A stretch of 64,000 bases of DNA from Thermoplasmata archaeon. Its GTDB lineage: Archaea; Thermoplasmatota; Thermoplasmata; Lutacidiplasmatales; UBA184. This document shows positions 3,502 to 40,933 of the stretch, piece by piece; position 1 is the first letter of the stretch; each line of letters begins with the position of its first letter. The notes beneath the pieces were generated by a model that saw only the letters and a program-made list of their open reading frames with translations, had not been told where the DNA came from and did no database searches. The stretch covers positions 1,338-65,337 of the forward strand of contig DASRSV010000030.1 in the NCBI GenBank assembly GCA_035656255.1, read 5' to 3'. The translations under genes and the position numbers were made by a program.

Positions 3502-5886
3502 ATGGTTCGCGCCTACCGAGTCCGCGCCGGCATCCTACGGCTGGAACCGGACGACCGAGAGGCGTTCATCGCTGGACTCCACGGGGCCGTCGCCGCGGCG
3601 TTCGGCTACGGGGTGAGGCTCGGAGTACGGTGGCGCTCCGGACCCCTCGGGGGCGTCGAGCTTCTAGTGCCGGGCGCGAGGGGACTCGCGTGGAGTCGCC
3701 GGTTCCTCGTCCCTCTGTTCTCGCCGGACCGTCTTACCGAGCTCGGACCCGAAGACACGCTCCGGCCGATCGGCCCACCCCAGCGGGAATCAGTACGGGG
3801 ACCCTTGCCCCCGCTGTTGTCGGCGGGGGACGGACACCATGGCTCGTGGACCGAGACGGCGCTGGGTGGGCTCTTCGGGCTCCCGAACGGTATCACGGTC
3901 GATTTCGAGCTCCGTCCGGGTGCCGGCCTCGGGCCGCCCTCGCCCGCGCCCCGTCCGCCGGGGCTGGAGGCGATCGCGGTCCCCGACCATCATCGTCTCG
4001 CGCCGCTGACCGGCTTCGAACGAGAGAGGCGCGACCGGATCGATCTCGCGGTGACCCGGGTCCGGTGGGGGCTGGTCGGTCGCCTCCACTCGAGACTGCC
4101 CGGATCGCTCACCGAACGAGCCGCCGACCTCCTCGGGGCGCACGATGGCGTCGACCTTGGGGGCGGCTTTGCGTTCCGTCGTTGCGGGGGTCGGCGGCGC
4201 ACCGCGGATACCGTGCCGGTCGGCGACGCGACGGTGGCCGCTCTGTTCCCGTTGCCGTGGATACGAATCCCGGAGTCGGCGAGCGGTGCCCCTTCGAACC
4301 CTGTCGGCCCCGAAATCGGCCGGTCGGGAGACGGCGCGGTCTACCGTCTCCCGTGGACACCGGACGAGGGTCGCCATCTTGTGACGGTGGGCGAGACCGG
4401 CATGGGAAAGAGCACGCTGCTCGTTTCGCTGGCACGGCAGGCGCTCGACCGGCACGCCGCCGTTGTGCTCCTCGATCCGGTCGGCGATACCGGCCGCGAG
4501 CTCGTCCGACGACTGTCGCCCGCGCAGGCCGAGCGGGCCACGTGGGTCTCGGCGGCGTTCGCCCCCCGGGGGATCAACGCGCTGAGCGGGATCGGTACGG
4601 CGGAGCCGGGACCCCGGGAGCGGATCGTCGGAGACCTGGTCACCGCGCTCCGCCGCGTCCGCCTCCAACGGTTCCCCGAGTCTTCGTTCTGGGGACCGAG
4701 GATCGAGGAGATGGTTCGGCGAGCGGTGCTCGTGGCGGCGCGGATCCCCCGCGGGACGCTCGTGGAGGCGGAGGGGCTCCTCGATCCAGCCGGCCGCGTT
4801 CCGGTGGGTCTCGCCGGGCCGGAGGCGCAGTCCGCCGCCGCCCTGCGAGCGCGCGTGGTCGGACGCCCGGACGATGTGGAGGGCGCCCGGCGGCTCCTGT
4901 CCGAGATCACGCGGAACGCCGTCCTTCGACCGATGCTCTGCGCTGCGGAGCCCGATTGGACGCTGGCGGGAGCGGTCGCGCCCGATGCGTTGACGGTGGT
5001 GACCGGCGACGCGTGCGAGGTCGGTGAAACGGCGGCGCGATACCTCCTCGCCGTCTATCTGGGGCTGCTGTGGCCCGAGGTCCTGGCGCGGGCGGAGCGC
5101 TCCAAGGTGGTCGTCGTGCTCGACGAAGCCCAATGGTACGCCCACGCGAGCCTCGGTGAGATGCTCCGACTCGGTCGCCGGTTCAATCTCCACGCCTGGA
5201 TCGCCACGCAGTCGCTCGACGCGATGCCCGAGGAGGTGCGGGAGGCGGCGTTAACGAACGCCTCGGACTTTGTCGTCTTTCGCGGGGCGCCGTCCCACTC
5301 CCGAGAGCTGGCCCGCTGGACGAGCGGGCTCACCGAGGGGAGTTTCCTTCGGCTGGGACGCGGTCGCGCGATCGCCTTCCTCGGAAAGGGCGAGCGCGTC
5401 GAACCGCTCGAAGTGACGGTCTGCGGCGAGCCCGAACGACCGGGGAACGAACGTCGGGTGCTCGACCGATCCCGCGAACGCGCGCGGGACGAGCAGGGAC
5501 GGTCGTCACACGTGGAGTCGTCCGACCCGCCGGGAGGATCCGCCGTCGCGTCGGAGTCGTCCCGGGGGGAGACCGAGATCGTCGAGGTCCTGGCGACGGC
5601 CGCTAGCCTCGTCGGTTCGGCGGAGTTCCGAGCCCACACCGCGACCCTCCGAGCGGTCCTTGACGTGAAGGGTGACGCCCTTCGGCGAGTTGGGGCACTC
5701 CTCCAGCGGGAGGGAGTGCTCCTCGCGACGGGCCGGGACTGGATCGGAACGGTGTGGCGCCTCTCGCGGGAGCGCCTCGCGGCCCTCGCTGCGAAGGGGC
5801 CGGCGCCTTCGACGCAAGCCCGCGAGGGAGGGGCGGCCGCGGAAATCGTGCGGCGGGAAGGGCGTGCCGCGGTCGGGAAGCATTAA
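3502..5886 (+). CDS. P-loop NTPase of the HerA/FtsK/VirB4-like (COG0433-type) class with novel N- and C-terminal regions
   Basis: ATG at 3502, with GGAGAGGAG 8 nt upstream. Walker A VGETGMGKSTLL, Walker B VVVVLDEAQ, followed by IATQSL. The N-terminal roughly 290 aa and C-terminal roughly 190 aa have no recognisable motifs. The six-frame ORF begins at 3433, but the RBS favours 3502. Confidence 0.6.
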   Translation: MVRAYRVRAGILRLEPDDREAFIAGLHGAVAAAFGYGVRLGVRWRSGPLGGVELLVPGARGLAWSRRFLVPLFSPDRLTELGPEDTLRPIGPPQRESVRGPLPPLLSAGDGHHGSWTETALGGLFGLPNGITVDFELRPGAGLGPPSPAPRPPGLEAIAVPDHHRLAPLTGFERERRDRIDLAVTRVRWGLVGRLHSRLPGSLTERAADLLGAHDGVDLGGGFAFRRCGGRRRTADTVPVGDATVAALFPLPWIRIPESASGAPSNPVGPEIGRSGDGAVYRLPWTPDEGRHLVTVGETGMGKSTLLVSLARQALDRHAAVVLLDPVGDTGRELVRRLSPAQAERATWVSAAFAPRGINALSGIGTAEPGPRERIVGDLVTALRRVRLQRFPESSFWGPRIEEMVRRAVLVAARIPRGTLVEAEGLLDPAGRVPVGLAGPEAQSAAALRARVVGRPDDVEGARRLLSEITRNAVLRPMLCAAEPDWTLAGAVAPDALTVVTGDACEVGETAARYLLAVYLGLLWPEVLARAERSKVVVVLDEAQWYAHASLGEMLRLGRRFNLHAWIATQSLDAMPEEVREAALTNASDFVVFRGAPSHSRELARWTSGLTEGSFLRLGRGRAIAFLGKGERVEPLEVTVCGEPERPGNERRVLDRSRERARDEQGRSSHVESSDPPGGSAVASESSRGETEIVEVLATAASLVGSAEFRAHTATLRAVLDVKGDALRRVGALLQREGVLLATGRDWIGTVWRLSRERLAALAAKGPAPSTQAREGGAAAEIVRREGRAAVGKH

Positions 5887-16074: not shown

Positions 16075-16525
16075 CGCCCGCCGGCGGGGCCGACGTGCTC
16101 CGCGAGAGTGCTTCGACGCGCTGCGACATCGCCTCGATGCGCTGCTCGAGCGTCCCAATCTGGCCCTCGAGGTCGCGTGCGGCTTGGTCCAGCTTGGTGA
16201 GGCGCTCGGCGAGCATCTCGCTCGCCTTCGGCGCCTCGAGTTCGACGACCACGCCCGCGCCCAGCCCGAGCAGCACCTTCTGTTCCGGATGCGCGGTCCC
16301 CCGCAGGAACGCGTCCGCGCCGAGCGGGATCAGGATCTCCGAGCCTTCCACCGCCCGCTCGAGCCCCTCAAGCGCTTCGCGCGAGCGAAGGTGGTCGCCG
16401 CGGGAGGCGGTCAGGTACTGATGCTGCTGGAGCATGGCGGAGAGTTGGGATCGGTACGCTTCGAGCCGGACAAGGTCCTCCTGGATCTGCTGCTCCGCGT
16501 CGCGCGGAGGAGCGACGGAGCTCAC
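16058..16525 (-). CDS. pfdA: Prefoldin alpha subunit
   Basis: Coiled-coil/beta-hairpin/coiled-coil architecture. GTG 16525 overlaps the rplX stop as GTGA. The conserved archaeal order rplX-pfdA-ftsY supports the call. Confidence 0.75.
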   Translation of the reverse strand: MSSVAPPRDAEQQIQEDLVRLEAYRSQLSAMLQQHQYLTASRGDHLRSREALEGLERAVEGSEILIPLGADAFLRGTAHPEQKVLLGLGAGVVVELEAPKASEMLAERLTKLDQAARDLEGQIGTLEQRIEAMSQRVEALSRSTSAPPAGDVGRD

Positions 16526-32411: not shown

Positions 32412-33658
32412 ACGCGGCCCCCGAGGTGCCGAAGCGACGTCGTGACGTCGCGGCGGCGGCGCTCTTCGTCGCACGGCTCGTCTACGCCTTCAATTGGTAC
32501 AACGTCGGGGCGGTTCTCCCGCTCATCGGCGCGTCGCTGCATGCGTCGACCGCCGAGCTCGGGATCGTCCTCGGCGCGTTCCTCGTCGGGGTCGGCGCGT
32601 TCCAGATCCCGGCAGGGATCGCCGCCACGCGGTGGAACCCACGCGAGGTCTCGATGGTCGGACTCGCGGCGATGTCGGCGTTCTGCATCGCGTCGGCGTT
32701 CGCTCCGAGCTGGCCGCTCCTCGCGCTAGCCCGCTTCGGCGCGGGGGTCGGGGCGGCGTTTTTCTTCGCCCCCGCGCTCAGCCTGATCGCCGCGTACTAT
32801 GCTGCGGGCCAGCGTGGGCTCGTGGTCGGAATGTACAACGGCGGGTTCAGCATCGGTGGGGCCGTGGGCCTCTTCGCCGGGGCCGCCGCGGGGCTCGCGT
32901 ACGGATGGCCGTTCGCCCTCGGGGCCGGAGGCGTCGCGCTGGCCCTCAGCACGGGGATCACCTGGGCCCTCCTCCCGCTGCCGGCCTCCGTTCCTCGCCG
33001 ACACGACCTCTCGTCGACCCTCGCCACGAGCCGGCGCGTCCTCCTCTCCCGATCGATCTGGGCCCTCGCCCTGGGCCTCACGGGCTTCTGGGCGGCGATC
33101 TACGTTGTGGCGCAGTACTTCGTGAAGTACGCCGCCGACGTCCAACCCCAGTGGGGACTCGGGGTCGCGGCGATCCTCTCCGGGGTCACGGTGTTCGCCT
33201 CGTTCCCGGGGGGCCCGGTCGGCGGGTGGCTCGCCGAGCGCGGGATGGACCGGCGTTGGCTCGTGGGCGTCTTCGGCCTCGCGACGGGCCTGCTGGTTCT
33301 GGCGCTCCCGTTCACTCCGCTGTTCGCGCTCTGGCCGCTCTTCGCTCTGCTCGGGCTCGTCGACGGGATTGTCTTCGCGGTCGAGTACCTCATCCCGGCC
33401 TACCTCTCGGACACGGCCGGGGAGGGGGTCGCGCTCGGGGTCGCGTTCATCAATTCACTCCAGGTGCTGATCGGCAGCGGGATCGCGATCGGATTCGGGT
33501 TCCTCGCGGCGGCTGATGGCTACTTGCCGGCGTGGATCGTGATCGCCGTGCTCACCGTGGGGCTGCTCCCCCTCCTCGCGTGGGTCGAGCCCAACCGTGC
33601 GCGCGGAGACGCGACGCCGAGACCGACCGAAGTGAAACCGGGGGGCGCGCGCGGCTAG
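32408..33658 (+). CDS. MFS transporter
   Basis: 12 predicted TM helices. GTG 32408 overlaps the MBL stop as GTGA. Confidence 0.7.
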   Translation: MNAAPEVPKRRRDVAAAALFVARLVYAFNWYNVGAVLPLIGASLHASTAELGIVLGAFLVGVGAFQIPAGIAATRWNPREVSMVGLAAMSAFCIASAFAPSWPLLALARFGAGVGAAFFFAPALSLIAAYYAAGQRGLVVGMYNGGFSIGGAVGLFAGAAAGLAYGWPFALGAGGVALALSTGITWALLPLPASVPRRHDLSSTLATSRRVLLSRSIWALALGLTGFWAAIYVVAQYFVKYAADVQPQWGLGVAAILSGVTVFASFPGGPVGGWLAERGMDRRWLVGVFGLATGLLVLALPFTPLFALWPLFALLGLVDGIVFAVEYLIPAYLSDTAGEGVALGVAFINSLQVLIGSGIAIGFGFLAAADGYLPAWIVIAVLTVGLLPLLAWVEPNRARGDATPRPTEVKPGGARG

Positions 33659-33798
33659 TCCGGTGCCGTTCGACGACCCCGGGTGGCCGGAACTCGGCGG
33701 GAGGACGCCCGGCAACGCGGCCCCCCCATCGATGACGGCCCCGGGAATCGTGGGCAAGGTTTAGACCTGATCTTCGGTGCGGAAGACGAAGGAGACCG

Positions 33799-34533
33799 AT
33801 GTCCACGATTCCCCCTGCCCCGCGGAAGGTCCGCCTCTTGGACTCCCACCCGGAGACCGCGGAGGCGCGGACATTCCGGTTCGATCGCGGGAGTCCGCCG
33901 TACGAGTGGCGAGCCGGTCAGAACCTCGTCATGACCATCTCGGGGGTGGAGGGGCCGAAAGGACCCACCTACCCTTTCACCGTCTCGTCGAGTCCGACCG
34001 AACCTGGGTTCCTCGCGATCACGACGTTCCTTCGGGACACGCCGTTCAAGCGTCGGCTGGCCGCCCTCAAGCCCGGAGAGACCGTCGATCTCGACGGCCC
34101 CGAGGGCACGTTCGTGCTCGAGCCCGGTAGGCCGGCGGTCATGGTCGCCGGCGGGATCGGCGTCACGCCGTTCCGAAGCATGCTTCGCTTCGCGACGGAC
34201 TCGCGACTCGAAAAGCCGCTCGTGCTCGTCTATTCGAGCCGCACCCTCGAATCGATCGTCTTCCGGGCCGAGCTCGATGAGCTCGCGCGCCGCAATCACG
34301 CGATCCGCGTCCTCCACACGATCACCCGCCCCGACGCCTCGGATCCGCGGTGGGGGGGACGGACGGGCCGGATCGACGGGGAGTTGCTCCGCGAAGCGAT
34401 GCGGGGGGTCCGCCACCCCCTCGTCTACGTCGCTGGGCCCCCGGAGTTCGTGCGCGCCGGCCGCAAGCTGCTCGCCGACGAGATCCGCATCGCCGCCGAC
34501 GACATCCGGACCGACGAGTTCGACGGATACTGA
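33799..34533 (+). CDS. FNR-like FAD/NAD(P)-binding oxidoreductase
   Basis: RxYS-type FAD motif region (FTVSSSP) and GGIGVTP NAD-binding motif. GGAGA lies 6 nt upstream of the ATG. Confidence 0.7.
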   Translation: MSTIPPAPRKVRLLDSHPETAEARTFRFDRGSPPYEWRAGQNLVMTISGVEGPKGPTYPFTVSSSPTEPGFLAITTFLRDTPFKRRLAALKPGETVDLDGPEGTFVLEPGRPAVMVAGGIGVTPFRSMLRFATDSRLEKPLVLVYSSRTLESIVFRAELDELARRNHAIRVLHTITRPDASDPRWGGRTGRIDGELLREAMRGVRHPLVYVAGPPEFVRAGRKLLADEIRIAADDIRTDEFDGY

Positions 34534-34564
34534 TCCCCCGTCTCGGGCAGGCTCCGGTCGGGCC

Positions 34565-34573
34565 ACTTAATTA
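34565..34573 (+). promoter_or_regulatory. TATA-like element (ACTTAATTA) about 27 nt upstream of tRNA-Gln
   Basis: AT-rich element at the canonical archaeal spacing before the mature tRNA 5' end. Confidence 0.5.
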
Positions 34574-34596
34574 CCGGGCCCTGACGTGGAGTCTCC

Positions 34597-34669
34597 AGCC
34601 CCGTGGTGTAGCGGCCAAGCATGCTGGCCTTTGGAGCCGGCGACAGCGGTTCGAATCCGCTCGGGGCTA
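34597..34669 (+). tRNA. tRNA-Gln (anticodon TTG/UUG); CCA not encoded
   Basis: 7-bp acceptor stem (AGCCCCG/CGGGGCT) with discriminator A. Anticodon arm CTGGC-CTTTGGA-GCCGG (U33, anticodon UUG, G37). T arm GCGG-TTCGAAT-CCGC. Nearly identical in layout to haloarchaeal tRNA-Gln(UUG). Confidence 0.85.
34642..34669 (+). repeat. Left copy of the direct repeat (tRNA-Gln 3' end; attL-like)
   Basis: ACAGCGG..CGAATCCGCTCGGGGCTA. The 18-nt core CGAATCCGCTCGGGGCTA is repeated exactly at 37904-37921. Confidence 0.7.
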
Positions 34670-35085
34670 TGGTCCGAATGGGGGCATCTCCCCTCACCCG
34701 AACCCGCCTCCGCCGAGGTGAGGCCTCCAGAAGTTCGGCTCGAAACGGACTCCGGCGGCCCGCGAAGCGTGCCTTGTGGACGGCCCGATCGTGGCTGACC
34801 CATGGGCGCTCGGGAATCCCCCCACCCGAACTTCCCCCGAGCGGCAACTCGGTGTAGCGCAGTCTCAATAGAAATCTCGAATTTCACGCGAGTTCGTGGG
34901 TCGGCTCGCGTCCAAGAGAGAGGTCCAAGAGCCCTTCGCTCGCGTCGACCGCCCGGCCCCGACCAGCTCCGAGGCGACCGGATCGATTCAAACCAGGCGA
35001 CGGCGCGACGACCCACTCCACCGGGGAACAAGATGTCTCAAGCCCGGCGCGAAAATGACTTGCCGGCCGCTCAGGTCGGTCGAGG

Positions 35086-37266
35086 TTGATATTCTTACGC
35101 GCGGTGGTTGGTCCCAGAGGAACCCCTTCGGTTCAGGGGGAACACGTGGTCGCAACGGATCTGGGCCGACCTGCCCAATCCTCGCTGGTGTTCGCGGTCT
35201 TACCCATCGTTGTCGCGATTGTAATTGTTAGCTCCCTGCCGACAGGGGTGCTGACCGAACGGAGCAGCGCTTTCGCGCCGGCGACAACCGGGGCACATAT
35301 TCACGCGACTCGAGCCGCCTACGCGGCGTCCCAACTTGCCGCCGCGAGAAACTCACTCCTCCCGGGCCAGGAGGCGTCGTGTCCAGTCACCGGAGCCGCG
35401 GGCTCGGGCCGGTGCCCCGCGGGTCCCGGGCCTTCTGGGGCCCGGCAGCACCTCGCGACAATTGGCCCCCTCCTGGTGCCGACCCCGTCGTGGAGCCAAA
35501 TCCGCTACCTGATTCCCCAGGGTCGACAGGTCGCGTCGATGGCTTACGATGCGAAGGACAAGTATGTACTGCTCTTCGGTGGGCTCAACAGTTCGGCCTC
35601 GTTGGGCGACACCTGGTCGTTCTCCGCGGGGGTATGGACGGCGATTCACACAGCGACGTCGCCTCAAGCTCGATACGGCGCCGCCATGACCTTCGACGGC
35701 GCGGACAACTATATCGTCCTCTTCGGCGGCTACAACAGTGCCGGCGCGCTCTCCGACACTTGGAAGTACGCCGCGGGCACGTGGACCAAACTCACCCCCA
35801 CCAAGAACCCGACCGCGGCTCTCTACGCGACGTTGAGTTACGACAGCAAGGACGGATACGCAGTCTACATCGGGGGACTCAGTGGTGCGCTGGTCGCCCA
35901 GAACGCGACTTGGGAATTCAAGGCCGGTCAATGGACACAGCTGACACCCACCCCTTCCCCGACGGCCCGCTACTTGGCGAGCCTCGCCTACGACGGACGG
36001 GACAGCTACCTGGTTCTCTTCGGCGGGGTTAACGCGACCTTCGCCTACCTTGGCGACACTTGGAACTTCTCCGCGGGCCATTGGTCCAAGCTGACTCCTC
36101 CGAAGGCGCCATCCGCAAGGGCGGAGTCGAGTCTAGGCTTTAGCGCGAGGGACGGGGAGCTGGTGCTCTTCGGGGGATACACCGGGGCGGCCTACCTCTC
36201 GGACGCCTGGACGTTCGTGGGCGGGGGGTGGACGAAGATAAGTACGGCTTTTCACCCGTCTTCGCGTGCCGGGGCGATGATCGCCGATGGGACCACCTCC
36301 CAGAATTTGGTGCTGTACGGAGGGGTCGTGGTTTCGGGCACGGTCATCAACCAGACATGGACGTTCCACGGTCTCGTCTGGACGAAGGCCATCCCCCGCT
36401 CGCCGGTGGGCCGAAGCCTTACAGCGATGACGTACGATGAGGCGGACGGCTATGTTCTACTGTTTGGTGGAAGCGACCTTGGTTACTTGGGCGACAGCTG
36501 GAAGTACCTCCACGGAACCTGGACGCCGATTCACACCTCCCCGTCACCACCCGCTCGAATCAGCGCCGCCATGGCGTACGACCAGGCCGACGGGTACGTT
36601 GTGTTGTTCGGGGGGAGAAATGCGAGCGGGCCTCTCTCGGACACGTGGACCTATCTCGCCGGGACCTGGAGCCAAGTGGTGGCCCCGGTTCCCCCGTCCC
36701 CGCGGGAATCGGCAAGCATGACCTACGACGCCGCAGACGGGTACATCCTCCTGTTCGGGGGATACGATCTCAGCGCGCTGAACGATACCTGGTCGTTCTC
36801 CGCCGGGATGTGGACGAACGTCAGTCCGCTTTCGGGTCCGTCGCCGCGATTCTCCTCGCAGCTGACCTACGATTCGGCGGACGGGTATGTCCTGCTCTTT
36901 TCAGGCTACCAGCCGTACCTCGTTCCCAACTCGTACAACGACACTTGGAGCTACAGCGCGGGTACGTGGACCAACCTCACCGCTGGCCTCGCCACAAGCC
37001 CCCCCGGACGAAGCATCGGGGTGATTTCGGACGATACCTACGACGGCTATCTGGTCCTGTATGGGGGATCCGACTCCAGCGGCGCTGGCGGTTACGTGAC
37101 GACGACCTGGAGCTTCGTGAACGGCGCTTGGGCGCAGCTTTTTCCGGCCGCGAATCCTGGTGTCCTCCTCTATATGTCGAGCGCATTTGACCCGCCAGAC
37201 AACTCCCTCATCATGTTCGGGGGAACTAACGGCTTGACGCTCCAAGGTGGAACCTGGTCATACTGA
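35086..37266 (+). CDS. Membrane-anchored Kelch-repeat (12 blades, two beta-propellers) surface protein
   Basis: N-terminal TM helix LVFAVLPIVVAIVIVSSL, then twelve repeats of the type YDxxDxYxxLFGG...DTWxxxAGxWT. Alternative GTG start at 35146. A GAAAATGA element lies about 24 nt upstream of ATG 35086. Confidence 0.7.
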   Translation: MIFLRAVVGPRGTPSVQGEHVVATDLGRPAQSSLVFAVLPIVVAIVIVSSLPTGVLTERSSAFAPATTGAHIHATRAAYAASQLAAARNSLLPGQEASCPVTGAAGSGRCPAGPGPSGARQHLATIGPLLVPTPSWSQIRYLIPQGRQVASMAYDAKDKYVLLFGGLNSSASLGDTWSFSAGVWTAIHTATSPQARYGAAMTFDGADNYIVLFGGYNSAGALSDTWKYAAGTWTKLTPTKNPTAALYATLSYDSKDGYAVYIGGLSGALVAQNATWEFKAGQWTQLTPTPSPTARYLASLAYDGRDSYLVLFGGVNATFAYLGDTWNFSAGHWSKLTPPKAPSARAESSLGFSARDGELVLFGGYTGAAYLSDAWTFVGGGWTKISTAFHPSSRAGAMIADGTTSQNLVLYGGVVVSGTVINQTWTFHGLVWTKAIPRSPVGRSLTAMTYDEADGYVLLFGGSDLGYLGDSWKYLHGTWTPIHTSPSPPARISAAMAYDQADGYVVLFGGRNASGPLSDTWTYLAGTWSQVVAPVPPSPRESASMTYDAADGYILLFGGYDLSALNDTWSFSAGMWTNVSPLSGPSPRFSSQLTYDSADGYVLLFSGYQPYLVPNSYNDTWSYSAGTWTNLTAGLATSPPGRSIGVISDDTYDGYLVLYGGSDSSGAGGYVTTTWSFVNGAWAQLFPAANPGVLLYMSSAFDPPDNSLIMFGGTNGLTLQGGTWSY

Positions 37267-37403
37267 GCGCCCTACCCTCGCACTCCGCGCGCGCCGCCGA
37301 TCCCGGCAGACAGGTCGATGAAAGTGAATGCGGCACGCAAGGGGCGTCGCGCGCGACGAGTCCGCGTCGCCGACGGCTCGGGGTTTGCTTCGGCCATTAG
37401 GCC

Positions 37404-37688
37404 TCAGTCTCCGCCCGCCCTATCGAGCCGCCTCGCCACCTTCTGGTACACCCTCACCGGCGCGCCCTGTCTGAGGCGCTTTTGGTGATACCAGAGGGTC
37501 GTCTTCGGTATCCCGAGTTTCCGGGCCTCCGGAACGGTCAGGGCAGCGATCTTGGCCGCCTGAACCGAGTTCCCGAGCGTCTCGGGCTGAATCTCGGGGA
37601 GGGGCAGGTCGAACTCGAACGTTCGGGGTCGGCGGCGCTCGGTCGCGACCTCCTCCGCGAATCTCTGGGCTCCGCGCAGAAGGGCCAT
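37404..37688 (-). CDS. Small HTH-domain protein (transposase/excisionase-type N-terminal HTH-like)
   Basis: AAKIAALTVPEARKLGIPKTTLWYHQKRL is a helix-turn-helix. 94 aa. It lies inside the putative island adjacent to the attR-like repeat. Confidence 0.45.
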   Translation of the reverse strand: MALLRGAQRFAEEVATERRRPRTFEFDLPLPEIQPETLGNSVQAAKIAALTVPEARKLGIPKTTLWYHQKRLRQGAPVRVYQKVARRLDRAGGD

Positions 37689-37895
37689 CTCCCAAGTCGT
37701 GGGCCGATCCCCCGGGATCTTGCGGGAAAACGGATGGTCAAGCCTTTGGAGGAGCTTCGGGGCTGCGCCTTCAGACGGGTCGATTGAGGAGGGCGGGATT
37801 GTCTACCGTCCCCGAGGAGCGTTTGCAGCGGGAGTAGCTCGTTGTCCGGGCGATTTCGCTCCCTTCCGTCAATAGTGTATCCATATCATCCAGTT

Positions 37896-37921
37896 ACAGC
37901 GGGCGAATCCGCTCGGGGCTA
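37896..37921 (+). repeat. Right copy of the direct repeat (partial tRNA-Gln 3' end; attR-like)
   Basis: ACAGCGGGCGAATCCGCTCGGGGCTA. The upstream sequence has no D or anticodon arm, so this is a fragment, not a tRNA. Confidence 0.7.
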
Positions 37922-38231
37922 CGGCCCTCGCGGGGGCACTCCTCCTCATACGAACCCCCGCTGCCCAGTGGGCTGGCTCTCGATCTCACGCGTTGTGCGG
38001 GCGATTGGGAGTCTCGCGGCTCGGGGTCGAGGGGACGACCCGCCCTGGCCCGGACGACCCCCCACCGGAACGTGTCCCGATAGGGGTCGGCAGACGTCCG
38101 TGCTCTCGGCCCTGCCCTCGGGAGGTTGCGCGCGGGGGATCCGCGGCCGGACGCGATCCGCTCTAGGATCGACCTCCCCGGTCCGGGGCGAGCTGCCCTC
38201 CGCGGCGTGGGGGGCGGGTCCTATGTGACCG

Positions 38232-39428
38232 TCAAGGATGTGTGACGCGGAATCCGGCGTTGCCGGCCGTCGCGCCGTTGAACGTCGCGGCCGCACGGAA
38301 TCCGTGCAGGTAGCCGCCGCTGACGGACTCGGTCAAGATCCCGAAGGACACGATGAACCAGTAGCGATGACTGGAGTTCAACGTCCAGTTGTGCCAGACG
38401 TCGCAGTACGTGTATGCGATCGCCAGGCAGTTGTCGCCGGGGGTGAGCGTCAGGGAGCCGTTCCCGACCGCGACGCCGCTGGCCGGAACACAACTCCCGA
38501 GCCCGAGCTCGCCGGGAAAGCGAAAGGATTGCACGAAGTCAGGACAAGCGTAGGTAAAGTTGGCCGAGGCGCACCCCGTTCGATAGCACCACGTGTAATT
38601 CTCGACGCCGCTCGCGTTCCCCGGCCCGTACCAATAGTCGAGCAGGCTGCTGAGCGAAGTGGCATTCGTCTGGTCGAAGAGCGAGATGTTCACCCAAGCG
38701 TACGACTGCACCCCCGCCGCGCAGTAGGATTGCGCCCGTGTATGGTTGGTCGGCTTCTGTGCGAGCGGACAGCTCTGGGTTCCTCCGATGGATACGTCCA
38801 CCGTATAGCCATACGAGAACGAAACCCGGAGCGAGTGGGCCGCGCTGTTCGCGATCCGAACCGGGACGAGCAGCGTGCCGAAGGAGCGGGCCAGGGCGAA
38901 GGCCCCGGCGTTCCTCCGCGTCGTCGGGGTGGTGCACCCGCTCAGCCCCGCGTGAGCGTATCCATGGATACCGGCGGTCTTGGGCGACCAGTCGACATGG
39001 CGGAGTGCGGTCGAGGCGCGACACGGGCCGCTCTCAAAGAGCTCCGCGGCGAAACTGGCCCGTGCGCCTTTCAGGGAGGTCACGGGCCCGGTCGGTGCCG
39101 TCGCCCCGGCGAGCGATGCGGCGACCGTGCTCAGGGCGACGAGCGTGGAGAACCCGGCGATGGCTGAGGTCCGATTCCGACGGAGCCGTGGGCGCGACGA
39201 GCGGAGAGAGCTCGGCTTCCCGCGTCCGATGGTCGAGCCATGAACGCGCACCCGTTCGGCCCGCGGCGTTTGAGGCGAGTGTTGTGTATAAACCTCGACT
39301 AGTCCGCGTGCGGAAACACGGCCGCAGGAGTGCACTCCAGCGTCGAGATCAATGTCGCGGCTGGCCGGTCTGCCCGTCGTCTGGCTGAACGGACGGACTC
39401 GGGCCGGGCCCTCACCGAATGTGGACAA
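38232..39428 (-). CDS. Secreted Cys/sequon-rich protein, paralog family member B (start uncertain)
   Basis: Internal signal-like segment RTSAIAGFSTLVALSTVAASLAGATAP suggests the true start is near 39240. C-terminal motifs are shared with the ORFs at 24428, 46217 and 47226. Confidence 0.5.
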   Translation of the reverse strand: MSTFGEGPARVRPFSQTTGRPASRDIDLDAGVHSCGRVSARGLVEVYTQHSPQTPRAERVRVHGSTIGRGKPSSLRSSRPRLRRNRTSAIAGFSTLVALSTVAASLAGATAPTGPVTSLKGARASFAAELFESGPCRASTALRHVDWSPKTAGIHGYAHAGLSGCTTPTTRRNAGAFALARSFGTLLVPVRIANSAAHSLRVSFSYGYTVDVSIGGTQSCPLAQKPTNHTRAQSYCAAGVQSYAWVNISLFDQTNATSLSSLLDYWYGPGNASGVENYTWCYRTGCASANFTYACPDFVQSFRFPGELGLGSCVPASGVAVGNGSLTLTPGDNCLAIAYTYCDVWHNWTLNSSHRYWFIVSFGILTESVSGGYLHGFRAAATFNGATAGNAGFRVTHP

Positions 39429-39431
39429 CGC

Positions 39432-39917
39432 CTACCGGGAGAGGTCGACCACCCGAGCCCGTTCTCGAGTCTGACCCCGCGGCTTTGAGCGTCGTCCCGC
39501 GCGCTCTTCCGTTGCTGTTGGCCAACGAAAGACTTCCACCCAATTCCCGTCGGGATCTTTTACGCAGGCCATCCAACCTCCGGTCTTCTGGGGAGTGACG
39601 GAGGTGGGTCGCGCCCCGCCTCGCAACAGTCGCTCATAGACCCGAACCAGTCTTGCCGGCGGCGCACGGCCGAGCGCGAATCCAATGTGGTCGAGCGCCT
39701 CCCCCGGGCGGTACCTCACCCCGAACCTCGAGCCGGGGGGATACCAGTTGAGCTCGAGTCTTGCTTTCGACTTGGGATCCTGCAGCCCCACCCAGATTCC
39801 GCGGCCGAAATCGCGAAGGTCTCCGCGAATGACCTCCCGGAGGCCGAGCACGCGGGTGTAGAAGCGGAGGGAACGTCGGAGATCTGAGACGCGGATCCCC
39901 ACGTAATGCAACTGCAT
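39432..39917 (-). CDS. VOC-family (glyoxalase/bleomycin-resistance fold) protein
   Basis: MQLHYVGIRVSDLRRSLRFY...LELNWYPPGSRF...LDHIGF. Paralogous to the ORF at 61969. Confidence 0.7.
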   Translation of the reverse strand: MQLHYVGIRVSDLRRSLRFYTRVLGLREVIRGDLRDFGRGIWVGLQDPKSKARLELNWYPPGSRFGVRYRPGEALDHIGFALGRAPPARLVRVYERLLRGGARPTSVTPQKTGGWMACVKDPDGNWVEVFRWPTATEERAGRRSKPRGQTRERARVVDLSR

Positions 39918-40114
39918 GAACCGAAGAGGTCCGCGGGGAATATCAGCCCGCGATGATCGTCGTTGCCCTGTGCGGAGCATTAGTAACATCCCCCTGTTGC
40001 TCCCCGTCGGTCCGTCCGGCCGGCCGATGCGGCCAGCGGCACGAAGCGACAGGGTCTCCCATCTCTTGTCCGCTTGAGACGCATCCGCTCAGGCCTATGC
40101 CCGCACGGAAGGCG

Positions 40115-40933
40115 TCAGGCGGCCGCCGGTCTCCGCACCCAGGCTTGGAACATTCGAGGTCCCGAGATCAGAGATTGCGGGTCCTCGGTGAATCCGGCGA
40201 GATCCTCCAAGGCGGACCGCAGTTCGGACGGGGTCGCGACGCCCGCGGCGAGGATCGCTTCGCTCGATGCCTCGAGGGTCGACCACGCCAGGGATTTCGC
40301 CTCTCCCTCGTAGCGCATCGGTTGCACGAAGCCGAACTGCGCTTCGGGGATCCCCACGTCGCGAAAGTATCGGCGAAGCTTTCTGCCCGCCGTCGGATCC
40401 CCGCCGTGCCGTCGCAGGACCTCGCTGTAGGCACGGACGAAGAAGGCGAATCCTTCGTTAGGCGGGTCACAGAACCATCCCTCAAAGTCGGCGTCCTCGA
40501 TCGCGAGCACCCCGCCGGCTCGCGCCGCCGTCCACATGCGGTGAACGAGGGCGATCGGATCGAGCAGATGTTGCACGAGCGCCCGCGAGTAGACGAGGTC
40601 GAACGCGTCGGGATCGTCCCATCGATTCACATCCATCCGGAGGAACTCGACGTTGCGAATCCCGCGCGTCGCCGCGGCCGCGCGCGCGAGTTCGAGGTTG
40701 ACGTCGTTCATGTCGATGCCCGTTGCCGAGCCCCCGGGACCGACGATTTCGGCCAGACCGAGGGTGACCTCTCCGCTCCCGCATCCGAGGTCGAGGCACT
40801 TCATTCCCGGGCGTACACCCGTCCGCTGGAACATTGCCGCCGTATCCGGCCATCGATCCCGGGCCAGCACGAGGAGACGATCGTACCCGGCCCGGCCCCC
40901 ACGGAGCACATACTTCTTGGGCTTCGAGTCCAT
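40115..40933 (-). CDS. Class I SAM-dependent methyltransferase
   Basis: Motif I CLDLGCGSG and motif post-I DLVYSRALVQHL. ATG 40933. Confidence 0.75.
   Translation of the reverse strand: MDSKPKKYVLRGGRAGYDRLLVLARDRWPDTAAMFQRTGVRPGMKCLDLGCGSGEVTLGLAEIVGPGGSATGIDMNDVNLELARAAAATRGIRNVEFLRMDVNRWDDPDAFDLVYSRALVQHLLDPIALVHRMWTAARAGGVLAIEDADFEGWFCDPPNEGFAFFVRAYSEVLRRHGGDPTAGRKLRRYFRDVGIPEAQFGFVQPMRYEGEAKSLAWSTLEASSEAILAAGVATPSELRSALEDLAGFTEDPQSLISGPRMFQAWVRRPAAA

Follow-up and report, generated by a model that had tools for sequence, protein, structure and literature searches.

What kind of element lies behind a tRNA-Gln gene when the DNA that follows the gene ends in an exact second copy of the tRNA 3′ end, carries a gene for a Kelch surface protein and holds no integrase? 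The question is raised by a stretch of 64,000 nucleotides (hereafter, the window; contig DASRSV010000030.1) from the metagenome-assembled genome (MAG) of a Thermoplasmata archaeon, with Pcc1, prefoldin and polyprenyl synthase among the upstream genes. The unit between the two copies is the debris of two known kinds of archaeal mobile element and not a mysterious integrase-less island. It is probably a composite, in which a boundary made of an arm and a tRNA-derived core encloses a casposon stump, while a casposon terminus of older date lies beyond the boundary, all at a shared tRNA hot spot.

A repeat-bounded unit with casposon remnants

The features of the unit and of its edges, in window coordinates, are as follows.

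34597-34669, forward strand: tRNA-Gln(UUG) of archaeal type, putative integration target (ARAGORN; Rfam RF00005, 58.8 bits)
34652-34669, forward strand: left core copy (putative attL core), starting at CGAAT in the T-loop and ending with the discriminator A, an exact repeat
34666-34679, forward strand: 14-nt stretch at the position of a casposon target-site duplication (TSD), GCTA plus the spacer TGGTCCGAAT, placed by the TSD geometry of two related casposons (L139 and L132, below)
34680-34725, forward strand: TIR-L1, a solo casposon terminal inverted repeat (TIR), the first 25 nt matching GGGGGCATCCCCCCTCACCCGAACC at 24/25
34726-35145, no strand: non-coding subterminal DNA from the TIR to the Kelch gene, with no coding signal in the G+C of third codon positions (GC3) and open reading frames (ORFs) without Pfam match
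35146-37266, forward strand: gene in cargo position for a predicted membrane-anchored, N-glycosylated Kelch protein of 706 aa, with strong Kelch Pfam matches
37404-37775, reverse strand: relic of a casposase (Cas1-solo) gene, of which residues 288-400 of a 417-aa protein remain
37867-37903, forward strand: non-tRNA arm of the right site (…AGTGTATCCATATCATCCAGTTACAGCGGG), with GTATCC 27 nt before the core
37904-37921, forward strand: right core copy (putative attR core), 18/18 against the left copy
37932-37956, forward strand: TIR-L2, a decayed casposon terminus, 20/25 against the L132 TIR and 22/25 against the TIR-L variant of L139

According to ARAGORN, tRNA-Gln(UUG) is the sole tRNA of the window, and an Rfam search of 33500-39500 at E<=1 returned nothing besides it. 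The 18-nt core CGAATCCGCTCGGGGCTA occurs exactly twice in the 64 kb, even with two mismatches allowed, while shuffled sequences lead to an expectation of 0.01. A preliminary description of this DNA had already noticed the exact recurrence at 37904-37921, seven further matching nucleotides upstream and the lack of a tRNA body in the second copy, and all three observations stand: ACAGCGG precedes the core in both copies, with TT in between in the tRNA and G in the right copy, and neither ARAGORN nor Rfam (E<=1) finds a tRNA-like structure in front of the latter. The unit thus has the direct repeat of a tRNA 3′ end at both ends (18/18) that is expected of an integrative element. Additionally, the similarity of the two copies extends over 54 nt (78%) past the tRNA, and 23 nt at 34818-34840 return as a patch at 38058-38080, some 140 to 150 nt after the cores. 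This trailer similarity is accounted for by a casposon terminus located 10 nt after each core. The core is 18/18 identical against only about 66% over the next 35 nt (right copy against left trailer), so that the history of the core, or the constraint on it, differs from that of its surroundings.

Both termini begin exactly 10 nt past a core, TIR-L1 after the end of tRNA-Gln and TIR-L2 after the right copy. TIR-L1 is recovered by a TIR profile at E=3.2e-8, and its near-perfect sequence suggests that it is young. TIR-L2 is weak in an unanchored profile scan (E=0.76), whereas the chance of a match of at least 20/25 at this fixed position is about 4e-7. Only positions 34680 and 37932 reach a TIR match of at least 19/25 when both strands are considered (128 kb of strand). 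No inverted TIR partner was found in the 64 kb, and both termini are in the left orientation. The 475 nt after the tRNA, previously described as non-coding, show indeed neither coding signal nor Pfam match over 34726-35145, but they begin with a casposon TIR.

The other casposon trace is the 94-aa ORF (37404-37688, reverse strand, recorded as VFF67_10660) that had been taken for a helix-turn-helix (HTH) protein. The ORF exists, but it is a C-terminal fragment of a Cas1 casposase, and its HTH Pfam matches are all sub-threshold. A search of 1.8 billion representatives found P0179, a protein of 417 aa with PF01867 over residues 5-294 (E=7.6e-40), to whose residues 288-400 the relic is 71% identical (E=5e-53), and in the same search many Cas1 proteins of about 390-410 aa matched at their C-termini. 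The relic, which corresponds to the last 113 codons (27%), comprises the last part of the Cas1 domain together with the C-terminal HTH domain; homology in the window is restricted to 37425-37775, where the conserved Met is gone (PTTWEMALL) and stops lie upstream. Seven homologues of the 94-aa ORF, 68-78% identical, were found: one follows a PF01867 Cas1 gene in L132, and another reads through from the Cas1 C-terminus (MVRAEP…DWGLRLAPETA…KRPMTWETALL). The protein reconstructed from L132 matches the casposase structure 6OPM of Methanosarcina mazei at E=3.4e-31, the C-terminal HTH region being included in the match; in casposase this domain is essential for integration (PMC6977970). Judged by its sequence, the unit holds a recombinase relic of the Cas1 class and no working recombinase, and this would explain why a recombinase had seemed to be absent.

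The family to which these remnants belong is represented among the metagenome contigs of relatives, designated here by L-numbers. An intact casposon of about 16 kb is located at the tRNA-Gln of one relative (L139:414-16504; JGI 3300085996 Ga0679475_0000380). In this contig, an MFS gene and tRNA-Gln (414-486) are followed by the spacer TGGCTCAGAA and the left TIR (497-521); the interior comprises, in this order, SIR2, a DprA-like gene, PolB (PF03175, the protein-primed type), the casposase P0179 and a type IIG restriction-modification gene; and past the right TIR (16466-16490) come a perfect 14-nt TSD GCTATGGCTCAGAA, a PIN gene and a methyltransferase. The flanks of this casposon are thus the same MFS and methyltransferase genes as in the window. 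L139 looks like a member of a casposon family from uncultured Thermoplasmata for which no described counterpart was found.

A decayed copy of the same family, inverted relative to L139, is found at tRNA-Val in L132:1900-14761 (ENA ERZ25039587 contig_184992). The two arms of its perfect inverted repeat of 25 nt, GGGGGCATCCCCCCTCACCCGAACC, are separated by 12.8 kb and enclose a Cas1 gene; one TIR arm stands exactly 10 nt past tRNA-Val, and the 14-nt TSD is preserved at 13/14. The casposase gene is interrupted by a frameshift and by a stop in frame; PolB, distributed over four frames, was seen only by tblastn with the L139 PolB, being missed by gene calls and Pfam. An extra truncated TIR start just outside the far TSD represents a tandem remnant. 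In L139 and L132 alike, the TSD takes in the final 4 nt of the tRNA and the 10 nt that follow. Additionally, L132 and the window share an arrangement in which a cargo slot separates the 3′ end of the casposase gene from the tRNA-proximal terminus that it faces; the slot is filled by restriction-modification genes in L132 and L139 and by the Kelch gene in the window. A tblastx comparison of the window with L132 was dominated by summed-statistics noise and was disregarded.

Compared with this family, the window contains the remnant of a casposon rather than a casposon, since the Cas1 domain (PF01867) has been lost, inverted repeats at both ends are lacking, the stretch 37918-37931 matches 34666-34679 at 8/14 instead of forming the 14-nt TSD of the family, and tblastn with the L139 PolB finds no PolB in the window at E<=0.01.

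The Kelch gene sits between TIR-L1 and the casposase-gene 3′ end. The earlier view of its product as a membrane-anchored protein with 12 repeats is borne out by the Pfam matches, by 12 xxW[STKNE][FY] repeats (spacing 47-54 aa, period about 49 aa) and by an N-terminal hydrophobic anchor; the protein also has 10 N-glycosylation sequons, and its start at 35146 agrees with an independent gene call (exact look-up). The 4306 homologues belong to Thermoplasmata, the best of them with 53% identity. A host-type surface-protein gene can, it appears, occupy the cargo slot of a casposon.

A family of arm and core sites behind tRNA-Gln

The right boundary of the unit is a member of a conserved site family of about 63 nt, composed of a 45-nt GTATCC arm and the 18-nt tRNA core. 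A metagenome scan with the repeat and its 7-nt extension gave 120 stretches, about 48 of them from close relatives, in which tRNA-Gln is 71-73/73 identical and the upstream MFS gene has 42-54% aa identity; the DNA following tRNA-Gln is wholly different among these relatives. Ten contigs plus L137/L138 carry one to three further core copies 0.6-6.5 kb downstream of tRNA-Gln, and the site-bearing contigs (L011, L040, L045, L046, L067, L071, L106, L111 and L137/L138) often have two or three sites each. The arm, whose consensus is TGTATCCC-TTGTGATGTAACAGCRRG, precedes every downstream core copy, and in all of these G replaces TT before CGAAT (15 aligned sites). A profile built from 12 sites of other contigs, with the window excluded, matches 37867-37923 at E=1.6e-11, while tRNA-Gln itself matches the core portion only. 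Therefore, the element-specific arm that an attR should have is present at the right boundary.

It was verified that the 15 sites form only a 4-5-bp hairpin in RNAalifold, with no covariation and no Rfam match, and that the arms contain indels and stops in every frame, with no consistent reading frame. By these features, the sites resemble DNA sites more than genes or RNAs. Each segment between two sites holds zero to three genes in either orientation, often for anchored N-glycosylated proteins, and the cargo of different segments is unrelated; no integrase was found in any inter-site segment. These integrase-less arm and core arrays stand behind tRNA-Gln in many related genomes. Between L071 and L111, a pair of positionally orthologous sites (L071b and L111c) is 84% identical, against 45% aa identity for the flanking gene.

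Some further observations concern this family. One subfamily has a conserved stretch of about 270 nt upstream of the core, with 66-80% nt identity, stops in six frames and no Rfam match (L045:1630-1899; L111, tRNA-oriented, 5437-5706; L071 2873-3139). A third, decayed core in the window, CGCATCCGCTCAGGCCTA at 40080-40097 (15/18), was rejected as not significant in the site profile (E=8.6); its region, 40052-40097, stops 18 nt short of the methyltransferase stop codon, and GTCTCC stands 26 nt upstream of the core-like sequence, which makes it suggestive by eye. It might represent a third site of great age and is not used in the argument. Viral-contig scans returned no match for the repeat with its 7-nt extension and none for the TIR, and the core alone gave one match without arm, which is likely irrelevant.

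The same core, with the same left boundary between TT and CGAAT, is used by the tyrosine-integrase elements of the clade. In L097 and L128, a PF00589 integrase is located 40 nt from the end of tRNA-Gln in the same host synteny. Two contigs (the ENA pair ERZ27237319 / ERZ27237336) present one element in two states: in L128:1-11041 it is integrated, with virus-like genes, integrase, tRNA-Gln and host synteny, and in L129:1-17846 it has an unintegrated junction, with virus DNA standing in place of the tRNA body. In the attP of L129, CGAATCCGCTCGGGGCTA is preceded by …GGAGAGTCC and followed by CCCGACAGAG…, with the left boundary placed as in the window repeat. An inverted repeat, TCTCTGTCGG / CCGACAGAGA, surrounds the 18-nt core there, and the element also carries a DNA methylase, Mom, HNH and a resolvase. 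In L136, a 60%-identical integrase is followed by an att copy and then by host genes. As integrase sources for the GTATCC arm, L135 and L136 were both rejected, the former targeting a tRNA-Val-like site and the latter targeting tRNA-Gln with a different arm.

Inside the unit, an integrase is missing. The claim that it encodes no integrase or transposase catalytic domain was upheld by Pfam (no recombinase match in any ORF at E<=1) and by a hidden Markov model (HMM) of 50 clade integrases, which found nothing at E<=1 in a six-frame translation of the window. Pieces of an integrase pseudogene, for which the 475 nt after the tRNA had been proposed as the place to look, were not found there by the Pfam search of ORFs or by the six-frame integrase HMM. 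A split integrase of the SSV type was also discarded, since the ORFs crossing or abutting both cores have no family matches and no frame is kept through the arms.

The closest Kelch homologue (52-53% aa identity) occupies the same tRNA-Gln locus in L137/L138, where tRNA-Gln, 291 nt, the Kelch gene, 318 nt and an arm and core site (E=4.9e-20) follow each other, with a second site a further 4.8 kb on. Neither a TIR nor a Cas1 relic was detected in L137. A Kelch gene beside tRNA-Gln in relatives, with no repeat, had been named beforehand as something that would speak against an insertion; the homologue is present in L137, but an arm and core site is there too. The Kelch gene is as diverged between window and L137 (52% identical) as the five flanking orthologues (47-60%), and so either the Kelch-plus-site arrangement would be old or related cassettes would circulate, rather than this being a recent one-off insertion. 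A more distant Kelch homologue (L126 1358-4421, tRNA-oriented; 33% identity) lies about 1.1 kb past tRNA-Gln in the same orientation; that contig stops 170 nt after the Kelch gene, so that any arm and core site there would lie beyond the contig end.

The states of occupancy were examined in an independent assembly (Logan, SRR12347816, k=31). One Logan contig ends at 34669, one of 3294 nt corresponds to 34640..37933, and one starts at 37904; the overlaps, 34640-34669 and 37904-37933, measure 30 nt (k-1). Such overlaps would be explained by a de Bruijn bubble whose second path runs from …GGTTCGAATCCGCTCGGGGCTA straight to CGGCCCTCGCGG, so that the end of the tRNA is followed by CGGCCC…. With a length below k, the 18-nt repeat cannot by itself cause the contig breaks, and since the first contig runs unbroken through the whole tRNA, another species bearing the same tRNA-Gln is an unlikely cause. 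That the sample also contains an allele lacking the 3252-nt unit is thus backed by good but indirect evidence, coming only from contig ends. The occupied junctions read …GGGGCTA joined to TGGTCCGAAT on the left and …CAGCGGGCGAATCC…GCTA joined to CGGCCC on the right; the predicted empty junction, of which neither a read nor a contig was seen, is …CAGCGGTTCGAATCCGCTCGGGGCTA joined to CGGCCCTCGCGG, and the predicted circle junction …CAGCGGGCGAATCCGCTCGGGGCTA joined to TGGTCCGAAT.

In a sister lineage, three states are seen: L058 is empty, L009 has a scar only, and L037 contains an insert of 1444 nt whose left end resembles a TIR and whose TSD matches at 11/14. Comparison with relatives had been proposed in order to find an empty locus. 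Unrelated DNA or nothing stands there in relatives (L058 being empty), but L137 has a homologous unit. A degenerate 23-nt second tRNA 3′ end, TGGTTCGAATCCGACCGGAGCCA, directly abuts tRNA-Gln in L009, L073 and L100, and the same copy abuts a core copy in L111 (5712-5729); it is absent from L058. By its sequence this copy looks like the scar of an emptied site, and it is also the source of the TGGTYCGAAT spacer present at the left junction of the window.

A probable composite origin and its rivals

The composite origin would have proceeded as follows. The 3′ end of tRNA-Gln would serve as a landing pad both for tyrosine-recombinase viruses or elements and for casposons. The tyrosine recombinase would cross over in the T-loop, giving the 18-nt repeat, with a far attR composed of element arm and core. 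The casposase appears to read the T-loop and 3′ end as a ‘leader’, inserting at +10 and duplicating 14 nt. The unit, 34670-37921, would be left by both, with an arm and core site as its right boundary; its interior would derive from a casposon that entered at +10, of which one TIR, the Kelch cargo and the last 113 casposase codons are left, the Cas1 catalytic domain, PolB, the far terminus and the far TSD having been deleted. TIR-L2, behind the repeat copy, would be an older casposon hit. The unit could be lost or moved only by recombination between the 18-nt cores, through an integrase acting in trans or through repeat-mediated deletion. We infer the order of events, the Kelch gene as casposon cargo, the empty allele and the trans-acting integrase from these traces.

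The left junction, we argue, arrived by crossover in the core and not by local casposition, because the block of identity corresponds to the 18-nt core and not to the 14-nt casposon target (8/14), and because the spacer TGGTCCGAAT has the form of trailer found in other lineages (L100, L009, L037 and L106), whereas the window's own trailer, after the right copy, is CGGCCCTCGC. The first interpretation of the locus, a classic attL/attR footprint left by an element that is decayed or served by a recombinase in trans, is therefore retained in part. The unit is discrete, its repeat is of att type (E=1.6e-11), integrase elements share its core and no working recombinase is present, but its interior is that of a casposon, with a TIR at +10 and a Cas1 relic, and not that of an island which has merely lost its integrase.

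Several points weigh against the composite origin. Only one terminus of the stump is present, without a TSD partner (8/14), and the stump is recognised by the TIR, its position and the Cas1 relic. The integrase-bearing L129 and L136 have arms that differ from the GTATCC family, and none is tied to a GTATCC arm. The sites are intact across genomes whose orthologues are about 50-60% identical, which is unlike the simple decay of an attR. The TIR lies upstream of the Kelch gene and the Cas1 relic downstream, an awkward arrangement if the Kelch gene was resident first. In L137, the Kelch gene and its site are as diverged as the flanks and show no casposon traces, yet TIR-L1 is nearly perfect. A young TIR-L1, an old Kelch unit and the position of the Cas1 relic are thus not reconciled by one simple history, and the empty allele was deduced from nothing but contig ends.

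Among the rival explanations, it is unlikely that the unit is a plain decayed island, in which a single tyrosine-integrase element lost its integrase and the casposon pieces are incidental. The att-type repeat with its arm, the use of the site by integrase elements and the mild depression of G+C and GC3 agree with this view. However, the interior holds nothing typical of an integrative element and no integrase fragment in any frame, and about 3.1 of the 3.25 kb are bounded by a casposon terminus on one side and by the 3′ end of a casposase gene on the other, in the order and orientation of L132.

An origin from casposons only, with tandem insertions at tRNA-Gln producing both copies and no tyrosine recombinase involved, is improbable. 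A casposon terminus does stand at +10 after both cores, tandem casposons separated only by their TSD are known (PMC4779613), and the casposase target includes an 18-bp T-loop segment (PMC5137440). In this family, though, the duplicated stretch consists of 14 nt, GCTA plus 10 nt (perfect in L139, 13/14 in L132), and it is precisely these 14 nt that agree at only 8/14 in the window, while the 18 nt upstream, which casposition does not duplicate, agree at 18/18. Moreover, the second copy is preceded not by an inverted TIR but by a conserved 45-nt arm that is not of casposon type, and about ten other contigs contain arm and core sites that have no TIR in their vicinity.

Little probability is also left for an old, vertically inherited chromosomal arrangement, in which the Kelch gene and the site are immobile residents kept by selection, for instance as a regulatory or processing mimic of the tRNA 3′ end. 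The order tRNA-Gln, Kelch gene (52% aa) and arm and core site in L137/L138, with flanks 47-60% identical, and the 84% identity of the L071b and L111c sites against 45% aa in the flank gene are what such inheritance would give. On the other hand, the content between tRNA and first site is wholly different among similarly distant relatives, empty as well as occupied states exist, and the topology of the Logan contigs implies presence or absence exactly at the cores; additionally, the sites flank genes in both orientations and have no conserved structure, covariation or Rfam match. Finally, that the second copy is what remains of a tandemly duplicated tRNA-Gln gene or pseudogene is scarcely credible, since, although it matches 25/27 of the last tRNA positions, it has no D or anticodon arm (ARAGORN, Rfam) and the 45 nt upstream are the conserved non-tRNA arm of 15 sites, in each of which CGAAT is preceded by G and not by TT.

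Beyond the composite origin of this one unit, a bolder and rather doubtful proposal is that the arm and core sites are working recombination sites of a cassette platform anchored at tRNA-Gln in soil and peat Thermoplasmata, with the recombinase encoded elsewhere and casposons stacking behind. Small segments, many of them coding for anchored and glycosylated surface proteins (such as Kelch, NHL, YVTN or beta-helix), would be shuffled in and out, an integron-like function on a tRNA 3′ end, and each site would recreate the casposase ‘leader’, with solo TIRs beside it. If this were true, these leader-adjacent solo TIRs would be a natural case of the proposed CRISPR-array precursor.

Flanking genes and comparison with known systems

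The G+C content is 69% for the window and 64-67% for the stretch from 34 to 40 kb. The comparison of codon usage and G+C between insert and flanks, suggested earlier, detected a mild depression (GC3 of 0.76 in the Kelch gene versus a window mean of 0.85, z=-1.7), but the next two genes outside the unit are low too, so the compositional signal of the unit is weak and extends past its limits. To the right of the unit, two genes were annotated.

38232-39251, reverse strand: secreted or anchored N-glycosylated protein without Pfam family, between TIR-L2 and the methyltransferase
40115-40933, reverse strand: class I methyltransferase, the conserved right flank of the hot spot, with Pfam families seen through the Logan gene call

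For the first of these, a shorter start (283 aa) is called in Logan. The methyltransferase has 58% aa identity with the one that follows the intact casposon in L139. Between the two genes, a glyoxalase-family ORF (39432-39917, reverse strand) has a Pfam match at E=1.3e-12 and a weak GC3 signal; no exact gene call was found for it with the two starts tried, and the Logan contig lists none here either. Within the variable DNA from TIR-L2 to the methyltransferase, this ORF may represent a gene in decay.

On the other side, a gene for an FNR-like NAD-binding oxidoreductase (33799-34533) lies between the MFS gene and tRNA-Gln. It is missing from this place in all relatives examined, where pyruvate kinase (L137, L128) or, in most, nothing is found, which indicates that the side upstream of tRNA-Gln is variable as well. 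The best matches of the protein in the genome collection come from Nitrososphaera and Nitrosopumilales (37-46%), and a hunt for empty sites with it in that collection gave only distant matches in Nitrososphaera, Nitrosopumilales and Marmoricola.

As regards known systems, the closest parallel is the tRNA-Leu locus of M. mazei, in which a casposon and a tyrosine-integrase element have overlapping sites and solo TIRs are common (Krupovic et al. 2016, PMC4779613). As in that case, one tRNA 3′ end serves here as att site and casposon target, with 14-nt TSDs, tandem insertions and solo TIRs. The present locus differs in belonging to Thermoplasmata, in the tRNA used (tRNA-Gln, and tRNA-Val in L132) and in an att-type partner that has lost all its genes; its casposon keeps one TIR and a casposase 3′ fragment, and the intact relative has a PolB of the PF03175 type. 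In Aciduliprofundum boonei, the casposase target has a 15-bp TSD that shares 5 bp with the end of tRNA-Pro, and it requires the neighboring 18 bp of TΨC sequence (Béguin et al. 2016, PMC5137440). The target described here is likewise a tRNA 3′ end, with a TSD overlap of 4 nt and the TIR at +10, although the TSD has 14 nt instead of 15 bp, the tRNA is another one and recognition is deduced from three or four natural insertions. A casposon family of uncultured Thermoplasmata uses tRNA-Gln and tRNA-Val with a fixed +10 position and a 14-nt duplication, and these natural insertions agree with the leader-plus-TSD rule worked out in vitro for A. boonei. More generally, archaeal tRNA genes harbor att repeats of about 17 bp in their 3′ part, cryptic integrated elements and tandem integrations of casposons and tyrosine-recombinase elements (Krupovic et al. 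2019, PMC6563490). The elements treated in the part of that work drawn on here generally keep their integrase, unlike the present unit, and integrase-less arrays with a shared arm are not described in it.

Two further systems resemble the locus in organization. Cis-mobilizable elements (CIMEs) are mobilized by the integrase of a related element after accretion at an att site. The unit has the structure of a CIME, with both att cores intact and no recombination genes, and it resembles those of Streptococcus (ICESt1/ICESt3; in part, PMC5704250) in being a gene-poor stretch between attL and attR, in the lack of such genes and in arrays formed by accretion. Unlike them, it has an archaeal host and no conjugation context, and its mobilization is putative.

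In integron arrays and in clusters of attC sites lacking integron-integrases (CALINs), variable gene segments carry conserved sites of about 60 nt, and many of these arrays have no adjacent recombinase. The arrays behind tRNA-Gln differ from CALINs in that there is no IntI by the first site (only the MFS gene and the FNR-like gene, and no recombinase, lie upstream of the unit), no conserved hairpin, zero to three genes in either orientation per segment and a core that is a tRNA 3′ end. Like CALINs, they are built of variable segments, every one of which closes with a site of about 60 nt that is more conserved than the cargo, and, if their sites were active, they would represent a new way to organize variable surface-protein genes in archaea.

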